From Verrucomicrobiales bacterium (GTDB taxonomy: Bacteria > Verrucomicrobiota > Verrucomicrobiia > Limisphaerales > UBA11358), in contig JAQTQB010000010.1 in assembly GCA_028712475.1 (NCBI GenBank), forward strand, positions 50,077-114,076: a stretch of DNA of 64,000 nucleotides, read 5' to 3'. The notes below the pieces were generated by a model. It worked only from the letters and a program-made list of their open reading frames with translations, ran no database searches and was not told the origin of the DNA. The position numbers were made by a program, and so were the translations under genes. This document shows, piece after piece, positions 3,182 to 63,903 of this stretch; position 1 is the stretch's first letter, and each line of letters starts with the position of its first letter.

Positions 3182-3233
3182 TTGTTCAATTAAAAATTGT
3201 GAATTAAAAATTAAAAATGGCGGAGCGCGGGCT

Positions 3234-4259
3234 TTAGCCCGCTTCAACCCCTGCACCTGCCAGTTTGTTGGAAAAGGCCACGCCAGCCTTGCTCTCGCCT
3301 GTCAAAGCGGCATAAATGCCGCGCTCCGACAATCTCACACTTTTAATTTTTGATTTTTCATCCCGTTTCAGCGCCAGATCAATCATCCGCTGACACAATT
3401 CCGCATAACCCAGCCCCGCCTCCGCCGCCGCCTTTGGCAGCAAACTCGTCTCTGTCATGCCGGGCAGCGTGTTCACTTCGAGAACAACTGGCTCGCCATT
3501 TGAGCAAACCATCACGTCCACGCGCGCATAATCGCGTCCGCCAATCGCGTGAAACGCGCCGAGCGCGGCGTCCTGAATCCGCTTCGTCGCCGCCGCATCA
3601 AAATCTGCCGGGCAAAAATATTCCGTCTCTCCCGCCGTGTATTTGCTCCGCTCGTCATACCGGCCGGACTTGGGACGAACCTCAACGACCGGCAGCGCTT
3701 CGCCCGCCAAAATGCCCACCGTCGTCTCGCGCCCGACGATTCTTTCTTCGACCAGCAGTTGCGAATCGTAGCGGAACGCCTCGCGCAGTGCATTTTTCCA
3801 GTCCGACACGCGCTCCACGAACTGCAGGCCCACGCTCGAACCCTGCCGCACCGGTTTCACCACCAGCGGCGGCTGCCAGCCCATCGGCCACGGCGTTTTG
3901 GCGGATTCGACCACCAGAAATTTCGCCGTCGGAACCCCGGCCTCGATGCACCGCTGTTTCGTCAGCACCTTGTCGAACGCGATGCGGCTCGCCACGGCAT
4001 CGCAGCCGGTGTAAGGCACGCCGAGTTTTTCCAACTGTTGCTGCACCGTGCCGTCCTCGCCGTAGGTCCCGTGCAACGCCAGAAACACCGCGTCCGTGTC
4101 CGGCGGCAAAATCCAGTCCGGCTTTTCCGGATCCAGTTCCACCACCGTGTGGCCGAGCGAACGCAACGCCTTGGCCACCCCCGCGCCGGAATTCAGCGAG
4201 ACTTTCCGCTCGGCGCTGGGGCCGCCGAGCATCACCACAATTTTTAATTTTCCATGCAT
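3234..4259 (-). CDS. ddl: D-alanine--D-alanine ligase
   Basis: N-terminus reads MHGKLKIVVMLGGPSAERKVSLNSG, and the body has ATP-grasp character. I chose the internal Met so the gene abuts the murB stop at 4261. Confidence 0.9.
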   Translation of the reverse strand: MHGKLKIVVMLGGPSAERKVSLNSGAGVAKALRSLGHTVVELDPEKPDWILPPDTDAVFLALHGTYGEDGTVQQQLEKLGVPYTGCDAVASRIAFDKVLTKQRCIEAGVPTAKFLVVESAKTPWPMGWQPPLVVKPVRQGSSVGLQFVERVSDWKNALREAFRYDSQLLVEERIVGRETTVGILAGEALPVVEVRPKSGRYDERSKYTAGETEYFCPADFDAAATKRIQDAALGAFHAIGGRDYARVDVMVCSNGEPVVLEVNTLPGMTETSLLPKAAAEAGLGYAELCQRMIDLALKRDEKSKIKSVRLSERGIYAALTGESKAGVAFSNKLAGAGVEAG

Positions 4260-16336: not shown

Positions 16337-16470
16337 CGTCAACGAAAATCTTTGGGTAAACGAGGATTTATTCAAAAGTTATTCACAATTTGAATTTGCC
16401 GTGGAAAATGCGCCAAACTTTCCCACGTGACAGCTTGAAACTTTAAAGCTGAAACTTGAAACTCGCCGCC

Positions 16471-21613: not shown

Positions 21614-21975
21614 AAGTCACCGAAATCGCGTTCAGTTGCTACGCCGTCACCGACATGGCGCGGGCGCGGAAATTTTATGAGGACGTGCTCGGTCTGAAAC
21701 CGACGACCGTCCACGATTCAGAACACGGCAAATGGGTGGAATATGAATTCGGCCCGCATGCCTTGGCCATCGGTTCATCGCCGATGTTCAAGCCGGGTCC
21801 CGATGGTTGTTCCGTGGCGCTGGAGGTGGAAAATTTTGACGACGCCATCGCGCACTTGCGCGCGCACAACGTGAAATTTCGCATCGAGCCGATGCCCACG
21901 CCCGTCTGCCACATGGCGATGGTTTTTGATCCTGATGGCAACACCATTTGCATTCACAAGCGGAAGAAATCGTAA
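21607..21975 (+). CDS. VOC (glyoxalase/bleomycin-resistance/dioxygenase) family protein
   Basis: 122 aa. beta-alpha-beta-beta-beta VOC-like pattern ([13 protein letters not shown].., [15 protein letters not shown]). Confidence 0.75.
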
Positions 21976-22004
21976 ATCGTAAATCTGAAATCGTAAATTT
22001 CATC

Positions 22005-22907: not shown

Positions 22908-22987
22908 CGTGTGGCAGGTGACAAGTGTCGAGAAGCGCCGCTTGACATTTAGTCGCGTCACATGACACCTGTCACTTGTCACTTTCA

Positions 22988-29466: not shown

Positions 29467-30094
29467 AGGCACGGAAGGCTGCGGCAAATCCACGCAGGTG
29501 GAATTGCTCGTGCAACGGTTGCGTGCGCTTGGCTATTGCGTCCGCAAGCATCGCGAACCGGGCGGCACGCCCATCGGCGAGGAGATCCGCCACACGCTCA
29601 AGCACAGCCAGCACAATCACGCGATGACCGCCGAGACCGAACTGTTGTTGATGAATGCCAGCCGCGCGCAGCTCGTCCGCGAAATCATCCGCCCTGCCCT
29701 CGCCGCCGGAGAAATCATAGTGTGCGACCGCTTTTACGATTCCACCACGGCGTATCAAGGTTACGGCCGGCAACTGGACCTGGAAAAAGTGAAGGCCGTC
29801 ATCGAGTTTGCTGTCGGCGAAACGAAACCCGACCTGACCTTGTTTGTTCACGTCCCGCCGGAAGTCAGCGCGGAACGGCTGCGTTCGCGCCAGGAAAATC
29901 TGCCGTTCGTCCGCGACCGCATCGAGGAAGCCGACCGGAAATTTTTCGAGCGCGTGGCCCGCGGCTTCGGCGTCATCGCCGCCGCGGAACCGCAGCGCGT
30001 CAAGTTCATCAACGGCGCGCAACCCATCGAGACCGTTTGCGCCGCCATCTGGGAACACGTCCAGCCGGTTTTGCCGAAGCTCGGGCGTTGGTGA
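29438..30094 (+). CDS. tmk: Thymidylate kinase
   Basis: Reads MSKGLFISFEGTEGCGKSTQ (P-loop). GTG start overlaps the cysS 3' end by 29 nt. Confidence 0.9.
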   Translation: MSKGLFISFEGTEGCGKSTQVELLVQRLRALGYCVRKHREPGGTPIGEEIRHTLKHSQHNHAMTAETELLLMNASRAQLVREIIRPALAAGEIIVCDRFYDSTTAYQGYGRQLDLEKVKAVIEFAVGETKPDLTLFVHVPPEVSAERLRSRQENLPFVRDRIEEADRKFFERVARGFGVIAAAEPQRVKFINGAQPIETVCAAIWEHVQPVLPKLGRW

Positions 30095-30134
30095 ACGCAC
30101 TTGCCGAATTTCCAAGAGCGAATACTTTTATTGC

Positions 30135-30467
30135 ATGATCGAAAACACGATTAGCGAAATTGAAGCAAAGATTCATGGGTCGAGTTCCATCAGCACCGAA
30201 CGCAAGCGTGAGCTGCTCCAGTTGCTCGGCACGCTGAAATCCGAAGTCAGCGCCCTCGCCAAAACGCACGACGAACAGGCCAGCAGCATCGCCAACTTCG
30301 CGCAAACGTCCGCACACGAAGCCACGCGGGAAAAACAGAATCAGGAATCGCTCGAACTTTCGCTGAAGGGTTTGCGTTCGTCGGTGGACGGTTTTGAACA
30401 GTCGCATCCCAAGCTCGTCCAGATCGTCAACAACATCAGCAAGACGCTGGCGGATTTGGGGATTTAG
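30135..30467 (+). CDS. Small helical protein, DUF4404-like
   Basis: 110 aa from the ATG at 30135 (internal Met of ORF 29844..30467). Helical, with a C-terminal ..HPKLVQIVNNISKTLADLGI end that I recall as typical of DUF4404. Confidence 0.55.
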   Translation: MIENTISEIEAKIHGSSSISTERKRELLQLLGTLKSEVSALAKTHDEQASSIANFAQTSAHEATREKQNQESLELSLKGLRSSVDGFEQSHPKLVQIVNNISKTLADLGI

Positions 30468-30471
30468 CCTC

Positions 30472-30565
30472 GTAGCAGCCGACGTGAGGAGGCTCTAATT
30501 TCCCTTGGCATTCTGATGTCGGTTTAAGATGAAGAATTACAGAGCCGACTCACATCGGCTGCTAC
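30472..30565. repeat. GTAGCAGCCGA-type inverted-repeat element between convergent genes (probable bidirectional terminator)
   Basis: The arms GTAGCAGCCGACGTGAGGAGGCTCT (30472-30496) and AGAGCCGACTCACATCGGCTGCTAC (30541-30565) are complementary at 21 of 25 positions. The left arm is identical to 32883-32907 inside aroA. Confidence 0.65.
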
Positions 30566-30574
30566 GGATTTCTT

Positions 30575-31213
30575 TTAATCAGCTCGCGGTTCCAGCTTCG
30601 CAATCGCCGCCATGATTTCGTCTGCGACTTCCTGGTAGATTTCCTTGAGCCTCGGCTTGGAACAAACCTTTGCCTCTGCGCGCAGGGTTTCAAATTTCAT
30701 CGGCCTGCCGTATTTCACTGCGACCCGGAACGGGCGCGGAAATTTGTGATTCCGCCCATACGCCTCAAAAGTTCCAAACGTCCGCACCGGAATCACCACC
30801 GCGTCGGATTTGACCACGGTCAGCCCGATGCCCGAACGCGCCGGCTGCAATTTGCCGTCCGCCGTGCGCGTGCCTTCGGGAAATAAAATGATGCCGCCGC
30901 CCGCGATCAGCCGGTTCAGGATTTCCCGCAAGCCCGCCGCGCCGCCGCCATCGCGATCCACCGGCACGGAGTTCCACGAACGCAGCAGCGCGCCGATGCC
31001 TGGAAAGCGGAACAGACTTTCGCGCGCGAGATAATTGATGGCGCGCGGCAAGGCGCAACCGACCAGCGGCGGGTCGAGAAAACTTGCATGGTTGGAAGCC
31101 AGGATGACGCCGCCCGTTCGCGGCACGCGTTCGGGATTGAACACGCGCCAGCGGAAATAGACCGCGAACATCGCGCGAAAGCCAAGCCAGCCTAAGCGAT
31201 AGGACAAGTTCAT
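30575..31213 (-). CDS. plsC: 1-acyl-sn-glycerol-3-phosphate acyltransferase
   Basis: NHASFLDP (HX4D) and FPEGTR motifs. The start MNLSYRLGW overlaps the cmk stop. Confidence 0.85.
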   Translation of the reverse strand: MNLSYRLGWLGFRAMFAVYFRWRVFNPERVPRTGGVILASNHASFLDPPLVGCALPRAINYLARESLFRFPGIGALLRSWNSVPVDRDGGGAAGLREILNRLIAGGGIILFPEGTRTADGKLQPARSGIGLTVVKSDAVVIPVRTFGTFEAYGRNHKFPRPFRVAVKYGRPMKFETLRAEAKVCSKPRLKEIYQEVADEIMAAIAKLEPRAD

Positions 31214-31869
31214 TTCGTTGCCGGCAGCATCGCGCGAATCTCCTTCAGCAGCCACCCGCTTGTCTGGGCGGAAGTCATGTTGGAGTTGTTCAGGACTTTT
31301 GCACCCAGCGCGATCATCAAGGGTGCCGCCGCCCGCTGACTGTCGCGCTGGTCGCGCGCGGCCAGATTTTCATTCACCCCGTCAGCCGCGCGACGTTTTG
31401 TCCGCTCCTCCAGGTGGGCGTCCAGATAAAATTTGTAGTCCGTTTCCGGGAAAACATTCGTCCCGATGTCACGGCCCTCCATCACCAGATCGCCGAACTG
31501 GATGCAATCCCGCTGTGCTTTTTTCATCCATTCGCGCACCTTGGGGATGACGGCGATCAACGACACGGCCAGGCTGGCCTCGGCGGTGCGGATTTCTTTT
31601 TCCGGAAAATAACCGTTCACCAGCAGATGCACCGATTTCAGCCCATCCTTCTCCACACATTCCAATTTGGTCTTCCATTTCCGGCACGCCGCCGCCACGG
31701 CCTTGGCATCGTGCGGATCAATCCGGTTCTGCATGCAAAACCACGCCAGCGTGCGATACATCGCACCGGTGTCCACATAAACGTAGCCAAGCGCCTTGGC
31801 CACAAGCTTGGAGTTGGTGCTCTTGCCGCTGGCGCTCGTGCCGTCAATTGCTATGACAATGTTTTTCAA
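31210..31869 (-). CDS. cmk: Cytidylate kinase
   Basis: IAIDGTSASGKST P-loop. TTG start. Confidence 0.9.
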   Translation of the reverse strand: MKNIVIAIDGTSASGKSTNSKLVAKALGYVYVDTGAMYRTLAWFCMQNRIDPHDAKAVAAACRKWKTKLECVEKDGLKSVHLLVNGYFPEKEIRTAEASLAVSLIAVIPKVREWMKKAQRDCIQFGDLVMEGRDIGTNVFPETDYKFYLDAHLEERTKRRAADGVNENLAARDQRDSQRAAAPLMIALGAKVLNNSNMTSAQTSGWLLKEIRAMLPATK

Positions 31870-31942
31870 TTTTGTTAAATGGTTAAATCGTTGAATGGTT
31901 GAATCGTGAACTGCTGCAACCGATTTAACGATTCAACGAGTC

Positions 31943-33454
31943 TCAATCCGCAAATAATTCCTCAACCGCCAATTTTCTTCCAGTTTTCGCGTCACGGATT
32001 TCCGCGCCCAGGCCGTGCGGCGGTTGCGCGGCGAGCTTCTGGAAAAAGTTCGGGAACGTCTTCTTCACGCAGGCGGGATTTTTAATTTTTATGCCGGGAA
32101 CCTTCAATCCCAGAATCGCAAAACACATCGCCATGCGATGGTCGTTGTAGGTCTCAATCTCCGCGCCGTGCAACGACGACGGCCATACCGTCAGCGTGTC
32201 ACCTTTCTCGACTACTTTCGCGCCGCACTTGGTCAACTCCGTCCGCAAAGCGATAACGCGCTCGCATTCCTGGACGCGCAGGCGGCCAAGGTCGGTGAAT
32301 TGATTTGTTTCTACCGAACACGCCAATAAATCCGTTGACGATAACACAATTGCCGTCATGATGCTGTCGCCCAAATCCAGCTTCCGCGAAATAATAGCGG
32401 TCTTAAAAGATTTCTTAACCAGTTTTGGTAGCTCCACGGACAGGTTGCCGCTCTTTTTTGCTTCAAGAATCAAACGGTGAGTTTCGCCGAGCGAAATTAC
32501 TTGAGGGAAATTTTCATCAATTTGCCATCCGGTTTTCGGCCAATTAAGAACTTCTATGTCAAAGTTGCCGTGAACCACATGACCAAGCCGAAATGGTTCT
32601 GGTAGAGATAATTTAAGTTCTGGCAAATTCGGAAAATCTTCGGCCCACGGAGCGATTTGTCCGGCCGCCCAAAAATAACTCCCGCTGCTTGCATCCGGCT
32701 CGATTTGAAAAGTTCCGCCGTTTTTCGGAAACACTTCCATCAATTTTGCAGTCATCGCCACATACGGCGATTCCTCCGCATTCTCGCCAACGATTTCAAT
32801 CTCCCAGCCGCCTTGCCTGGACGAAAGCAACAACGCCGACGCAAACTGTGAGCTATCCTCGATGCTGACTTTGCAATGCTTCGTAGCAGCCGACGTGAGG
32901 AGGCTCTGACTTTCCTTTTCAGTTTGAGCCTCGCTACCTCGGCTGCTACCACCGAAAATCTTCACCGGCAGCCTGTCATTCCCCTTTTCAGATTCGACGC
33001 GATAGCCCAGTTCTCGCAACGCCTGGAACAGCGCGGCCTGCGGACGCTCGTGCATTCGCGGCACGCCGCTCAAACGATACACGCCATCGCCCAGACAAAC
33101 GAACGCCGACAAGAACCGCGCCGCCGTGCCCGCATTGCCCACAAAGAGTTCCAACGGCTTTTCCGCCGTGCCCGCGTTCGGAATTTTCCCGCCAAGACCT
33201 TTGACCGCGATGGTGCGGTTGCAAGGTTCGTCCGGATCATTTTGTTTGCTGACCTCAAACCCGAGTTTTTGCAGACAATCGAACATGATCTCCGTGTCCT
33301 CGCTCCACAGCGCGCCCTTGAGCGTCACTTCGCCATCGGCCAGCGCGGCGAGGATCAGCGCACGGTTCGTGATGCTCTTGGAACCGGGCACGGTGATCTC
33401 CGCGCGCACGGGCTTGTTGAGCGGAACGATTTCGATGAGGTCGGGTAAAGACAT
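31943..33454 (-). CDS. aroA: 3-phosphoshikimate 1-carboxyvinyltransferase (EPSP synthase), with lineage-specific insertions
   Basis: Starts MSLPDLIEIVPLNKPVRAEITVPGSKSITNRALILAAL. Also contains EPDASSGSYF and RVQECER motifs. Confidence 0.9.
   Translation of the reverse strand: MSLPDLIEIVPLNKPVRAEITVPGSKSITNRALILAALADGEVTLKGALWSEDTEIMFDCLQKLGFEVSKQNDPDEPCNRTIAVKGLGGKIPNAGTAEKPLELFVGNAGTAARFLSAFVCLGDGVYRLSGVPRMHERPQAALFQALRELGYRVESEKGNDRLPVKIFGGSSRGSEAQTEKESQSLLTSAATKHCKVSIEDSSQFASALLLSSRQGGWEIEIVGENAEESPYVAMTAKLMEVFPKNGGTFQIEPDASSGSYFWAAGQIAPWAEDFPNLPELKLSLPEPFRLGHVVHGNFDIEVLNWPKTGWQIDENFPQVISLGETHRLILEAKKSGNLSVELPKLVKKSFKTAIISRKLDLGDSIMTAIVLSSTDLLACSVETNQFTDLGRLRVQECERVIALRTELTKCGAKVVEKGDTLTVWPSSLHGAEIETYNDHRMAMCFAILGLKVPGIKIKNPACVKKTFPNFFQKLAAQPPHGLGAEIRDAKTGRKLAVEELFAD
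32883..32949. repeat. GTAGCAGCCGA-type hairpin repeat inserted in-frame inside aroA
   Basis: Arms at 32883-32907 and 32926-32949 are inverted repeats. Positions 32881-32907 are identical (27 nt) to 30470-30496. The element encodes ..SSRGSEAQTEKESQSLLTSAAT... Confidence 0.65.
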
Positions 33455-33460
33455 TTTTAA

Positions 33461-33594
33461 CCACAGATAAACACAGATGGACACAGATGCGGAAAAATTC
33501 CGACACGGATTTCACCGATTAACCCGGATTCAATCTGTGAAAATCCGTGAAATCCGTGTCTGGCAAATCTGTGTTTATCTGTGCCCATCTGTGG
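33461..33594. repeat. Nested palindromic element built from 10-bp-phased CACAGAT words
   Basis: Left: three tandem decamers containing CACAGAT (33461-33489). Right: three inverted copies (33567-33594). Inner inverted repeat is CACGGATTTCAC/GTGAAATCCGTG. The element lies between the tyrA stop and the aroA start. Confidence 0.6.
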
Positions 33595-33599
33595 TTGAT

Positions 33600-34484
33600 T
33601 TATTCCGATGAAGCGGTCGTGGCTTTTGCGCACCATCTGTCGCGGCGTTGCCTGGCGGTCGCAAAGATTTTTTCAACGGTCCTAGCGTCGCCGCGTTTGA
33701 GCGCGCTTTGGAATTTTTTCAACTCCGCCACAAACGCATCCACCGACTGTGAAAGGTTTTTGCGGTTGGCCAGCGCGATGTCGCGCCACATCTCCGCCGA
33801 ACCGGACGCGATGCGCGTGGTGTCGCGAAAACCGGTCGCGCACAAGGCGGCCTGCGTTTTGGGACGCGCCGGATTCAAAACCAGATTTGCCAGCGCCGCC
33901 GCGACGACGTGCGGCAGATGACTCGAACGGCTGACGAGCAGATCATGTTCGCCCGCCGTGAGCCGCAGCGTGCGCGAGCCAAGCGATTTCCAGAATGTCT
34001 CCAGCTTGCGAACGGCGGTTGCATTGGACTTTTTCGTCGGCGTCACGATGCAGACTGCGTTCTCGAACAAATCCGCGCGCGCAGCCAGCACGCCTGTTTT
34101 TTCGCCGCCCGCCATCGGATGGCTGCCCACGAAATGCGCGTCCGCCTTGGCGATGATTGATTCCAATTCGCGCACGACACCGGCTTTCACGCTGCCGACA
34201 TCGGTGACAATCGCGCCGCGTTTGAGTGCCGGAAGAATTTGCTCCGCGAGCGAACGCATCTGCGCGAGCGGCGTGCAAAGGATGACGAGGTCGGCATTGG
34301 AAACGGCGGCGAACAGATCCGTCACGGCATAATCCACCGCCCCGGCCTTTTCACAGTCCTTCAAGCTCGCCGCGCGGCGGACGAACCCGGCAATCTCGCC
34401 ACCCAGCCGATGCCGCCGGACGGCCAGCCCGATGGAGCCTCCGAGCAAACCGACGCCGATGATGGTGATCTTCCGAAATTGCAC
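33600..34484 (-). CDS. tyrA: Prephenate/arogenate dehydrogenase
   Basis: Rossmann motif IIGVGLLGGSIG plus PDH-like sequence. I favour the GTG at 34484 (MQFRKITIIG) because of the conserved leader it shares with queA. The TTG at 34499 is the alternative. Confidence 0.85.
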   Translation of the reverse strand: MQFRKITIIGVGLLGGSIGLAVRRHRLGGEIAGFVRRAASLKDCEKAGAVDYAVTDLFAAVSNADLVILCTPLAQMRSLAEQILPALKRGAIVTDVGSVKAGVVRELESIIAKADAHFVGSHPMAGGEKTGVLAARADLFENAVCIVTPTKKSNATAVRKLETFWKSLGSRTLRLTAGEHDLLVSRSSHLPHVVAAALANLVLNPARPKTQAALCATGFRDTTRIASGSAEMWRDIALANRKNLSQSVDAFVAELKKFQSALKRGDARTVEKIFATARQRRDRWCAKATTASSE

Positions 34485-34502
34485 GCCAGTGAGTTTCAAG
34501 TT

Positions 34503-35582
34503 TCAAGTTCCAAGTTTCAAGCTTGTTCCACGCCGTGCGGCTTCGTGGCAGGCGTCTAAAACTTTTTGCGTTTTCAGCGCCCACTGCGGCCAGTCCTCAT
34601 TAAGATTGCCGGAGAAAATCTGGTTTGCAAAATTGCGGAACATGAGGGTGTCCTGTGCCGTCGCGTGACCTTGCCATGCGGGTTCGACACCCGGCGGGCA
34701 TTTCACGCCGGACACCGTGCGGATTTCAGCATCGTTGACCTCGAACGCCGGCTCGTAACTGTCGAGCGCATGGACGAAGCCTGGCACGCGCAGCCAGCCT
34801 TTCTGTCCGCAGACGTGCGCCCATTGCTGCCGGGCGGCGAGAAAGGAACAATAAAACCCCGAGGAAGCGCCGCCGTCATAAATCAGTTCGCCGGTAAATT
34901 CCGTTGGTGCGGACGTGCCGGATTGCAAAAGAATTTTGCCGGTGACTTCGCGCGGCAGTTGCCAGTTCATCGTCCAAAGCGCGAAACGGATGCAATACCA
35001 GCCGAGATCGCCGAGGCAGCCGGCGGGTTCCAGCGCGGCGTTCACGCGGATGTTGTCGCGGGAAAAATTTCCGTCGCCATAAAAACTGAAGGCCGAAACA
35101 ATCCGGCGGATTTCGCCGACGCTCTGGCCGTCGTCCAAAACCTCGCGAAGCTTCGCCATGCGCGGGCTGTGCATGAACATCACGCCGTCCATGAACTGCA
35201 CGCGGTGTTTCGCGCACGCAGAAATCATTTCCTCCAGTTCGGCGGCGCTCACGGCGCACGGTTTTTCGCAAATGATGTGCTTGCCAGCCGCCGCCGCGCG
35301 GAGAACCCATTCCTTGCGGAGGCCGGTCGGAAGCGGAATATAAACCGCGTCCACTTCCGGCGAGGCTATCAATGCTTCATAGCTGCCGAGCGCATCGGGC
35401 AAAATGTCGAAGGAATTTTCATCCTGACATTCGCGAATGAATTCACGGCTTTTATTCACGTCGCGACTGGCGACGGCGGAAACGACGCAGTTGCCGGAAT
35501 TGAAAATCGCCCGCCAGTTTTTCCTGCCGATGCCGGCGGTGCTCAAAAATCCGATGCGCAGTTGTTTCATATCCGGCTTCAA
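34503..35582 (-). CDS. Gfo/Idh/MocA family NAD(P)-dependent oxidoreductase
   Basis: N-terminal Rossmann region IGFLSTAGIGRKNW and the EKP motif (ICEKPCA). Confidence 0.8.
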   Translation of the reverse strand: MKPDMKQLRIGFLSTAGIGRKNWRAIFNSGNCVVSAVASRDVNKSREFIRECQDENSFDILPDALGSYEALIASPEVDAVYIPLPTGLRKEWVLRAAAAGKHIICEKPCAVSAAELEEMISACAKHRVQFMDGVMFMHSPRMAKLREVLDDGQSVGEIRRIVSAFSFYGDGNFSRDNIRVNAALEPAGCLGDLGWYCIRFALWTMNWQLPREVTGKILLQSGTSAPTEFTGELIYDGGASSGFYCSFLAARQQWAHVCGQKGWLRVPGFVHALDSYEPAFEVNDAEIRTVSGVKCPPGVEPAWQGHATAQDTLMFRNFANQIFSGNLNEDWPQWALKTQKVLDACHEAARRGTSLKLGT

Positions 35583-35622: not shown

Positions 35623-36498
35623 TCAAAGTTTCATCGCATCGTCCACAAAGGTGGTGAACCACGGCTCCGGTGCGCAGGAAAACTCCTTCGGCTCGTCACG
35701 CCAGACGAAGCGCACGGAGCGGGCATGGAGGGCGTGGTTTTCAAAAATGAGCCGGGCGCGCTGTTCGTCGGTAAGACGTTGCTGGACGAGGGCGAGATAC
35801 AAATCCTCGTCGCCACCATAAATTTTGTCGCCGACGATGGCGTGGCCGAGATGCGCGAGATGGATGCGAATCTGATGCTTGCGACCGGTGCGCGGCTGGA
35901 CGCGGAGCAAGGAAAACGCGGATGGAGGGTGGAGGATGGAGGATGGATTGGGGCAGCCCACCTCACCCCGACCCTCTCCCCTCATCTGATGGGCCGAGAG
36001 GGATAATGGTTCGCCAGCCTTCTGTGCAATCGGACGCGTAATTCTTCGCTCGACCCAGTATTCGGTCTGGGCGGCGGCACCGTCGGGGCGCACGCAATCT
36101 TTTACGGCGACGACGCTGTATTCGTCTTTTCCGAGCGGCGCGTCAATGATGCCATGATCTTCGCGCACATGGCCGTGGACGATGGCGAGATATTCTTTTT
36201 CAATGGCGCGGCCTTCCAGAATTTTTCCCAGCTCGCCCGCAACGGCGGAATTTTTCGCCACGATAACCACGCCGCTGGTTTCGCGGTCAAGGCGGTTGAC
36301 TAGGTGGGGCGAGGCTACTGACGAGCCGTCGTCTCCAAGCCCGGCTCGCGCGGACGCTCGCCCCACCAAATGCAGCCGCACCCGGCCAATGAGGCTGGAC
36401 ATCTCGCCGCTCTTGGTCGGATGGCAGACGAGGCCGGCGGGTTTGTTGATGACCAGCAGCTCGTCGTCTTCGTGGATGATGTCGAACAGTCTTCCCAT
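35623..36498 (-). CDS. RluA-family pseudouridine synthase (two in-frame repeat-derived insertions)
   Basis: NRLDRETSG catalytic motif, plus TGRKHQIRIHLAHLGHAIVGDKIYG. Confidence 0.85.
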   Translation of the reverse strand: MGRLFDIIHEDDELLVINKPAGLVCHPTKSGEMSSLIGRVRLHLVGRASARAGLGDDGSSVASPHLVNRLDRETSGVVIVAKNSAVAGELGKILEGRAIEKEYLAIVHGHVREDHGIIDAPLGKDEYSVVAVKDCVRPDGAAAQTEYWVERRITRPIAQKAGEPLSLSAHQMRGEGRGEVGCPNPSSILHPPSAFSLLRVQPRTGRKHQIRIHLAHLGHAIVGDKIYGGDEDLYLALVQQRLTDEQRARLIFENHALHARSVRFVWRDEPKEFSCAPEPWFTTFVDDAMKL

Positions 36499-63443: not shown

Positions 63444-63612
63444 TTTTCTTAAATCTTATTTCTTTGGCGGCGCATCAACGCGCTGATTGAACCAAAGGGC
63501 GGAAGAAAATATCAGTTGCCGCCCGTCCGTCAATAACTGATTTCTGGAATTTTAGTCCACCAAACGAGGCAAGGCCAGCCTGTCAAGACGAGGACTGACC
63601 CCTTGTTGAGGA

Positions 63613-63903
63613 TCGTCCGGGTGGGGGGGCGAGTTTTTGAGTTTGAGCGGGCTGACGCCGCGCTGCTACGAGAGGGTGGCATCAAGCGTGAGCTTGATCT
63701 TTATTCTTCCGAAATGGGGAGCGTCCGGGTGGGGCGCGAGTTTTTGAGTTTGAGCGGGCGCACGCCGCGCTGCTACGCCGTATTTCGTAGCATCAAGCGT
63801 GAGCTTGATCATTATTCCGGATTTGGGGTGTCGTGGGTTGGCGAATGTTTTTTTGAGTTAGAGCGGGCGCCCGCCCGCTGCTACGGACGTTTTTTACGGA
63901 CGG
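63613..63903. repeat. Tandem repeat, about 108-bp unit, 2 full copies plus 1 degenerate copy, each with internal hairpins
   Basis: CGTCCGGGTGGGG occurs at 63614 and 63722, with a degenerate GTCGTGGGTTGG at 63830. Each unit contains GAGCGGGC..GCTGCTACG. The first two units also contain the hairpin ATCAAGCGTGAGCTTGAT. Confidence 0.7.

Follow-up and report, generated by a model that had tools for sequence, protein, structure and literature searches.

The aroA gene considered here lies in a stretch of 64,000 nucleotides from a Verrucomicrobiales metagenome-assembled genome (MAG; contig JAQTQB010000010.1, the whole stretch being referred to hereafter as the window) and encodes 5-enolpyruvylshikimate-3-phosphate (EPSP) synthase (EPSPS), within which a 67-nt inverted repeat is carried in-frame. 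We hold it to be likely that this repeat is a REPIN-type element, that is, a pair of inverted repetitive extragenic palindromic (REP) sequences forming a long hairpin, probably mobilised by a REP-associated tyrosine transposase (RAYT) and tolerated in a permissive surface loop of the enzyme. The loop itself, to judge from the orthologous sequences, is a permissive hotspot for many repeat families.

The element inside aroA

The element, picked out in the original prediction as an inverted repeat of roughly 67 nt, is a head-to-head dimer of two 24-nt arms (Table 1), and GTAG stands at the outer (5′) end of both arms, as it does in both arms of a second, intergenic copy in the window (the arm on the opposite strand reading CTAC). 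Over 32883-32911 and 32921-32949 the inverted repeat is imperfect (79% complementary), because an arm of the 'GAGGTAGCGAG' variant pairs with a consensus arm. Folding of the mRNA-sense strand gave a minimum free energy of -43.3 kcal/mol against a shuffle mean of -24.3 (z = -6.7), with 0 of 200 shuffles folding as well, which agrees, at the level of a predicted structure, with the strong hairpin that had been expected in the mRNA. A search of Rfam over 30000-34000 returned no match at E <= 1.

Assignment of the host open reading frame (ORF) to EPSP synthase was given by Pfam (PF00275, E = 1.8e-72) and by a search of the PDB, in which EPSPS structures were matched with a best E of 2e-52. The motifs GSKSITNRAL, GNAGTA, SSQF, DHRMAMCF and KTFP are present, and the gene order tyrA-aroA-cmk-plsC-DUF4404 is conserved among the orthologue loci. 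Residues S170-T191, which derive from the element, are placed between KIFGG and KHCKVSIEDSSQF with the reading frame remaining open, as had been claimed when about 22 residues were said to have been added to EPSP synthase without loss of frame. Since this frame (SSRG.EA...SLLTSAAT) is both open and hydrophilic, the element would be translated as a 22-residue disordered loop, with the ribosome presumably reading through the hairpin.

The AlphaFold model of AroA (mean pLDDT 81, pTM 0.83) superposes on 1G6S and other liganded EPSPS structures with a Foldseek TM score of ~0.75 (target-normalised). Mapped onto this fold, as the original prediction had proposed, the insert falls in a low-confidence loop (pLDDT <50 at residues 173-188) between strands 164-167 and 193-197, the latter of which leads to the helix starting at the SSQ motif (S201-Q203) that binds shikimate-3-phosphate (S3P). 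The sheets of the 'inside-out' alpha/beta fold of EPSPS are solvent-exposed, so the turn that carries the insert should face outside, away from the cleft, as judged from secondary structure rather than from measured distances. The insert is thus a predicted disordered loop in an otherwise normal predicted EPSPS fold, and the open frame, the conserved motifs and this model together support the earlier view that the gene has been colonised without being inactivated.

The repeat family across genomes

A search for the arm beyond the window had also been proposed. When bacterial genomes, one for each species, were scanned with a pattern matching three of the four arms present in the window, at least 120 stretches bearing the arm were recovered; they belong to at least 59 assemblies (counted over the 80 stretches listed), nearly all labelled Verrucomicrobiota, and include both genic and intergenic copies. 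Nine of the stretches lie in a single genome, assembly JACRJZ01. Complete elements could be delimited in 49 cases, each with two 24-nt arms and all tagged with GTAG, the family consensus being C-GTAGCAGCCGACGTGAGGAGGCTC ... GAGCCTCCTCACGTCGGCTGCTAC-G. Their length is mostly 62-94 nt, with hypervariable spacers of ~15-50 nt that are often made up of 7-nt tandem repeats, and the arm variants pair as homodimers and as heterodimers. The minority arm GTAGCAGCCGACGTGAGTCGGCTC (the 'GTCGGCT' variant), found as right arm in the intergenic copy and also in the aroA copies of two orthologue loci (L020 and L135), self-folds with a 7-bp stem (dG -8, z = -4), and self-folding is limited to this variant.

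No direct repeat indicative of a target-site duplication was found in the flanks of the 49 copies. A preference was seen for C before GTAG (31/49) and for G after CTAC (26/49), which extends the palindrome. The element belongs to the REP/REPIN class as a GTAG-tagged dimer; 'miniature inverted-repeat transposable element' (MITE) is the less apt label, because there is no target-site duplication and a RAYT-like Y1 transposase is associated with the family, so that the first half of the 'REP/MITE-like' designation originally given is the more fitting one.

Within the window, GTAGCAGCCGACGTGAGGAGGCTC occurs exactly at 30472 and 32883, with a copy bearing three mismatches on the other strand at 30542-30565, against 0 matches in shuffles, and the two dimers of the family found there compare with ~0 in shuffles. 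The identity of 27 nt out of 27 reported earlier between the intergenic left arm (30470-30496) and the aroA element (32881-32907) is exact. Its reading as a sign of recent local copying was rejected: the arm is the family consensus and recurs unchanged in dozens of other genomes, so that the match is no evidence of local duplication.

Two side observations concern the sample itself. One member of the family (L015, 827-1068) has a ~180-nt palindrome of another family nested in its spacer (GGAACGGAGCGCGGCTGTGG...), and this nested palindrome is related to the 'CVADQPQ...AALR' insert found in the aroA of orthologue loci L168 and L204. Among the arm-bearing contigs L003, L009, L012, L047, L048, L055 and L069, several bear the label of a Bifidobacterium, Klebsiella or Akkermansia MAG; the gene content of these contigs looks verrucomicrobial, and they are probably mis-binned or mislabelled.

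A RAYT-like gene beside the repeat

A search for the HUH motif in the window and in all collected loci yielded two loci only (L006 and L075), both of which had been collected solely for bearing the arm. In L006, an ORF at 935-1561 (208 aa) has a complete dimer (819-914) 20 nt upstream and further arms at 1515-1541 and 1591-1614, at and beyond its 3′ end; in L075, a homologous HUH ORF is directly preceded by a dimer at 3764-3838. The encoded protein matches positions 15-146 of the 146 in the NCBIfam profile NF047646 ('REP-associated tyrosine transposase') with E = 7e-12. Among PDB entries, E. coli TnpA_REP scores best (4ER8, E = 8.5e-5), and in that alignment the HUH motif and the catalytic Tyr coincide. 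Judged by sequence, the arrangement at both loci corresponds to a REPtron architecture, which points to RAYT-type mobilisation as the most likely mechanism; the family is probably mobilised by such a RAYT-like enzyme.

In-frame copies in other genes

Long open frames contain ~20 of the 49 complete dimers. Host genes were taken as confirmed where Pfam domains span the element or lie on both its sides, and with 17 hosts confirmed in this manner, together with another aroA (L020) that carries the element at the identical site, genic in-frame copies make up at least 18 of the 49 (37%). The confirmed hosts are UvrB, MutS, a DEAD helicase, a class-III aminotransferase, a sulfatase, a sigma-54 activator, a di-haem (cytochrome c) peroxidase, PrpD, a POT transporter, a GluQ-RS-like synthetase, a multihaem cytochrome, a PSD/PSCyt protein, a Type ISP enzyme, a CHAT protein, a phosphodiesterase, an FtsX permease and a dynamin. 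Long ORFs spanning the elements in L010 and L107, without domains and of odd composition, were treated as spurious antisense frames and excluded from the count.

The frame SSR(R/G)xEA...SL(L/V)TSAAT is used by 14 of 19 genic copies. One of the three frames of the 5′ arm has stop codons and the commonest used frame is hydrophilic; such a bias would be expected if random insertions had passed through a filter of selection. Were ~90% of the DNA coding, the genic share of ~37% would likewise imply that purging is strong. A length of 1 mod 3 was found in 14/19 genic copies vs 13/30 non-genic ones (p = 0.09), a weak trend. Two of the hosts carry a second, different repeat-derived peptide: in UvrB (L004) the peptide PLTPSLSPSGGERV directly follows the REPIN, and in PrpD (L012) a peptide ..RRARSDAPYP.. 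lies ~190 residues past it, between two PrpD domains.

The aroA loop in orthologues

Two sets of orthologues were compared, a set of 64 anchored orthologue loci from metagenomes and a close set of the 120 closest AroA proteins, which are 66-77% identical to the AroA of the window. At 37 of the 64 anchored loci the region has a fixed span of 30-31 residues, NDRLPALIHG-xGPRxG-KCRVSIEESSQFAS, with a short empty loop, GxGPRxGKC; these are the more distant orthologues, roughly 50-65% identical, and the short loop is the ancestral empty state. A pre-existing GTAG/CTAC target within the empty loop was considered and rejected, none being present in any of the 37 empty sites. In the close set, by contrast, the loop carries an insert in 115 of the 120 proteins and is empty in five. 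The earlier statement that homologues have only a short loop at this place therefore holds for the distant orthologues and fails for the close ones, just as the expected absence of the insertion elsewhere was found in the outgroup (37/37 empty) and not in close orthologues, many of which bear a similar peptide, SRG[DN]E..SLLTS[AS][AP]T, from the same repeat family.

The inserts found at the loop, termed cassettes here, belong to at least eight unrelated families. Within the close set, ~60 are of the present family and its sub-families, ~17-19 of the 'PKYQ' type, 12 of the 'TENTE...LWQ' type, six of the 'RDAVSAS...RDGDTPSVP' type and five of the 'RADLPV...QRVPT' type, with seven 7-nt tandem-repeat cassettes and several rarer types. 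Several are, at the DNA level, other GTAG inverted dimers (GGTAGGGACGCGTTCCACCGCGTCCC...CCCTACC, GGTAGTGGCACGGGCGTC..., GGTAGGGGCGGCGCG...) with hairpin z values of -3 to -11, others are long GC-rich palindromes, and the 7-nt repeat and PKYQ cassettes form no hairpin (z ~0). Cassette families A2, H, B and G are also present away from aroA in a small sample of ~1.1 Mb; no second copy of types D, J, C and I was found in the same ~1.1 Mb, a sample too small to judge dispersal. The junctions differ among cassettes (FGG/.../KHC; HGGGPTLTG/.../CKSC; FGG/.../VSIEE, in which the original loop is lost), which suggests several independent events. Nucleotide conservation among orthologues is 0.83 and 0.93 in the two arms vs 0.76 in the SSQFASALLL codons, so that the arms behave as repeat DNA and not as a freely drifting loop. 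A nucleotide identity of 0.46, obtained for the 90 nt preceding the arms, was discarded, these segments being out of register through indels. A second AroA loop, after GLGGKIPNAG/TAEKPL (residues ~95-101 of the window AroA), carries a different, repeat-type peptide ..GRQDACPT.. in P0034, P0054, P0056, P0057 and P0078, and is a second, less used permissive site.

Turnover of the cassettes was judged by a topology-free analysis of pairs. Up to ~95% identity outside the loop, that identity has no bearing on whether two proteins share a cassette type: the fraction of pairs with the same cassette was 0.16-0.41 in the bins of 65-95% and 1.0 above 95%, and unrelated cassettes occur even in AroA pairs whose identity outside the loop is 92-95%. 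Two such pairs, in which synteny is conserved, were aligned as DNA and found to have flanks 90-100% identical around a wholly different block of 80-100 nt between ...AAAATTTTYGG and TGC...GTxAGCAT; in both pairs the 5′ halves are ~90% identical and parts of the 3′ halves 100%. This shift of flank identity at the cassette suggests that allelic recombination ending there probably contributes to the diversity. Targeted insertion, in-situ replacement and recombination are not separable with these data. Fitch parsimony of the cassette types on a neighbour-joining tree gave 40 changes vs ~58 with shuffled labels, a comparison made on a star-like tree with one heterogeneous class and not relied on.

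Weighing the explanations

As proposed, the element would be a non-autonomous mobile repeat consisting of two inverted 24-nt GTAG arms around a short variable spacer, moved in trans most probably by a RAYT-like HUH/Y1 tyrosine transposase. One copy would have transposed into the DNA for a solvent-exposed beta-hairpin turn in EPSP synthase, or have reached it through recombination with an allele already bearing the element, and would persist there through the tolerance of the loop rather than through any service to the enzyme, such neutrality being our presumption. Insertions that broke the frame or the fold would have been purged, leaving the surviving genic copies in permissive loops and largely in one frame, and the same aroA loop would have been hit or exchanged repeatedly, giving rise to different repeat families in close relatives. 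Several observations weigh against this account. Single arms of the aroA copy, like the majority arm of the family, form no stem-loop alone (z ~0), unlike canonical REPs; no RAYT-like gene was found within the 64-kb window; the RAYT-like protein of the related loci scores 45 bits, below the curated NF047646 cutoff of 80 bits, as a distant relative, and a Pfam search with it gave no match. Near-universal occupancy of the loop among the closest orthologues could, moreover, mean some benefit and not pure tolerance. The last point speaks for the idea of a domesticated insert, in which the hairpin or the loop would be functional (by pausing translation between the folding units of EPSPS, by acting as a signal for mRNA stability or processing, or by giving the enzyme a flexible loop of some use) and selection would keep the site filled, with only five of 120 alleles empty. 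The strong hairpins kept by many cassette types (z of -4 to -11) and the DNA-level conservation of the arms are on its side, but neither the sequences nor the peptides of the cassettes are related, those of the 7-nt repeat and PKYQ types are hairpin-free, the segment is predicted to be disordered, empty-loop alleles remain within the clade, and 37 of 37 outgroup enzymes do without an insert. Occurrence of the same repeat in at least 17 unrelated proteins further argues against a role specific to aroA, and domestication is judged improbable.

The source of the cassette diversity is the matter on which the preferred account, a tolerated REPIN-type insertion, meets its more serious competition. 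Homologous recombination of diverged aroA alleles carrying old and rare insertions might be the main source, to the exclusion of repeated new transposition or targeted replacement; the mosaic seen in both near-identical pairs, where the flank identities switch around the cassette, is what such exchange would give. Shuffling of insertions creates none, however, and at least eight families with differing junctions still need many independent insertions at one loop. Recombination as the main source is regarded as a possibility of some substance that we do not favour. Somewhat less credit is given to the idea of an active landing pad, in which hairpin repeats of different families would be preferentially inserted at, or swapped for, the resident hairpin; it is rather unlikely, and might, for instance, operate through a RAYT-type process in which a single strand is excised and then inserted where a stem-loop already stands. 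That the segment is ancestral to the AroA clade and merely repeat-like, or that the intergenic copies are gene-derived, is very improbable: the similar peptide in many close orthologues would fit, but the arm is found at at least 120 unrelated loci and in at least 17 other gene families, the arms show base-for-base agreement with the genome-wide consensus, outgroup enzymes have a short, conserved loop, and alleles 92-95% identical outside the loop hold unrelated cassettes. Misjoining of a repeat into aroA during assembly deserves mention given the MAG source and the confusion that repeats can cause to assemblers; the 67-nt insert is, however, shorter than a typical read, in-frame and set between unique aroA flanks, and equivalent inserts occur in dozens of independent JGI, ENA and NCBI assemblies, so that an artefact has a negligible chance of being the explanation.

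Relation to known systems

GTAG-tagged REPs, their head-to-head dimers and in-frame genic copies were described by Di Nocera, De Gregorio & Rocco (2013, BMC Genomics; PMC3733652), who reported that intragenic GTAG REP dimers encode 20-30 aa, often in repair genes, and are most numerous in the verrucomicrobium Opitutus terrae, that in-frame GTAG and CGTC REPs occur in several phyla, and that different REPs are found at approximately the same recB site in two Xanthomonas species. The present family shares with those repeats the outer GTAG, the inverted 'HH' dimers, the heterodimers of arm variants, the variable spacers (20-100 bp there), a copy between convergent genes, genic copies in repair genes (here UvrB and MutS) and RAYT genes flanked by repeats. 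It differs in that the O. terrae families encode VGPALAAG, GTGVPPV and HGRHARAT, and neither GTAGCAGCC, nor TSAAT, nor an aroA host was found in the supplements of PMC3733652. It differs further in that the majority arm has no stem-loop of its own, a much larger part of the copies is intragenic (at least 37% of complete dimers), conservation of the arm extends over at least 59 species-level assemblies, and a single loop is host to at least eight families.

REPIN-RAYT systems (Bertels & Rainey 2011, PLoS Genet, PMC3116915; PMC3337134) are likewise non-autonomous pairs of inverted REPs whose arms and spacer make one long hairpin, with no target-site duplication and with copies of the repeat on both sides of a single associated gene for a Y1/HUH transposase, as seen here in related genomes. 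REPINs have been described as extragenic and largely lineage-specific, whereas the present elements are often translated and common to many species; the RAYT-like protein is also a distant, sub-threshold match with no counterpart in the window.

Palindromic repeats inserted in-frame are known too as Rickettsia palindromic elements (RPEs; RPE-1 and others, Ogata et al. 2000, as relayed in PMC3733652), and for those of CGTC type no dedicated transposase is known according to PMC3733652. Both kinds of repeat lie in-frame in many functional genes, are translated as a fold-compatible surface segment and have a similar genic share, but the host phylum differs, the families are separately named, and the likeness is one of behaviour rather than of compared sequence. 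RPE-1 is longer, about 100-150 bp, and we know of no report of RPEs in which one codon position serves as a hotspot for several families. Bacterial MITEs (Correia/NEMIS, ERIC, RUP, Nezha) resemble the present family as short, non-coding elements bounded by terminal inverted repeats, which are sometimes co-transcribed and occasionally in-frame. MITEs derive from insertion sequences of the DDE type and make target-site duplications, unlike the present family, which shows none and to which an enzyme of HUH/Y1 type is linked.

In-frame REPs are hence already on record, as RPEs and as the GTAG REPs of O. terrae, and what is new is the family and its host gene aroA. Less expected are the high genic share, the identical arms in dozens of species and the majority arms that do not self-fold; least expected is the fast turnover of at least eight repeat families within one loop of a housekeeping enzyme.

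Other features of aroA and of the window

The longest aroA ORF begins with GTG at 33484, vs the ATG used in the database protein, and its extra N-terminus MSICVYLWLK is a translated upstream repeat and spurious. The source of this peptide is a nested palindrome of ~150 nt in the tyrA-aroA spacer (33455-33600), with outer arms CCACAGATAAACACAGATGGACACAGATG / CATCTGTGCCCATCTGTGG and inner arms GACACGGATTTCAC / GTGAAATCCGTGTC. Elsewhere in the protein, residues ~270-350 (~32405-32645, minus strand) form a clade-specific segment with ~40 aa extra relative to solved EPSPS structures; the HMMER match splits at 267 and 367, the length varies among orthologues, and pLDDT is <50 at 274-297, followed by three short helices. 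Residues 391-399 (RLRVQECER) are invariant in a 50-sequence alignment, the E. coli counterpart being RVKETDR, and the clade has Q at the position of E. coli EPSPS K340, which we take to be an S3P-contacting residue. Since this change is conserved across the clade, it does not signal a defect particular to this aroA.

Table 1. Coordinates of the features discussed, in the numbering of the window.
Feature	Position	Strand	Details
aroA (EPSP synthase), host gene	31943-33454	minus	503 aa; ATG start 33454; identical to database protein P0001 (Verrucomicrobiales MAG)
REPIN-type element in aroA	32883-32949	.	67 nt; head-to-head dimer of GTAG-tagged 24-nt arms
Left arm of aroA element	32883-32906		GTAGCAGCCGACGTGAGGAGGCTC
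Spacer of aroA element	32907-32925		19 nt
Right arm of aroA element	32926-32949		GAGCCTCGCTACCTCGGCTGCTAC
Element-derived codons (22)	32882-32947	minus	AroA S170-T191 (SSRGSEAQTEKESQSLLTSAAT); from translation and orthologue alignments
Intergenic copy, same family	30472-30565	.	94 nt; left arm 30472-30495, right arm 30542-30565, spacer 46 nt
Cluster of second GTAG-tagged REP family	63610-63885	.	107-nt units x2.5; from TRF, sequence and direct repeat

The intergenic copy is flanked by convergent gene ends at 30467 (+) and 30575 (-), with a T-rich run (GGATTTCTTTT) 3′ of its hairpin; it was not flagged in a terminator scan that accepts loops of 3-8 nt only. The units of the second GTAG-tagged cluster read ...GCTGCTAC-N8-GTAGCATCAAGCGTGAGCTTGATC, with the GTAG tags pointing inward, from which it follows that the source genome hosts several GTAG REP families. 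The cluster resembles a bacterial interspersed mosaic element (BIME), being made of tail-to-tail REP pairs (...GCGCTGCTAC-N8-GTAGCATCAAGCGTGAGCTTGATC) with a 7-bp stem. Short tandem arrays, each of ~4 copies of a 7-nt unit, are scattered over the window at 16434-16463, 21967-21998, 22957-22984, 34492-34521, 35920-35947 and 3188-3218 (units CTTGAAA, AAATCGT, GTCACTT, AGTTTCA, GGATGGA and AATTAAA), and 7-nt tandem sequence of a like kind is found in many REPIN spacers and makes up the stand-alone 'type F' cassettes of aroA orthologues such as L123, L127 and L134.

Significance

Repeats of this sort have practical consequences for the annotation of MAGs, in which they create spurious N-termini and ORFs and inflate the length variation of orthologues, and they can mislead alignments, as when the aroA insert was misaligned by HMMER. 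Were the landing pad to be real, coding loops would serve as safe harbours in which cassettes are swapped within a few percent of divergence, and the loops of housekeeping proteins would be rapidly diversified across the Verrucomicrobiota. The aroA loop offers a natural experiment in which at least eight unrelated inserts, or none, are found in otherwise near-identical proteins, and it makes testable both the tolerance of proteins towards insertions and the targeting of sites by hairpin repeats. For the Verrucomicrobiota, the finding describes a widely distributed REPIN-type family of which more than one third of the complete copies are translated in ordinary genes; as the very name of REPs includes 'extragenic', yet many copies here are translated, this bears on how such elements are described.

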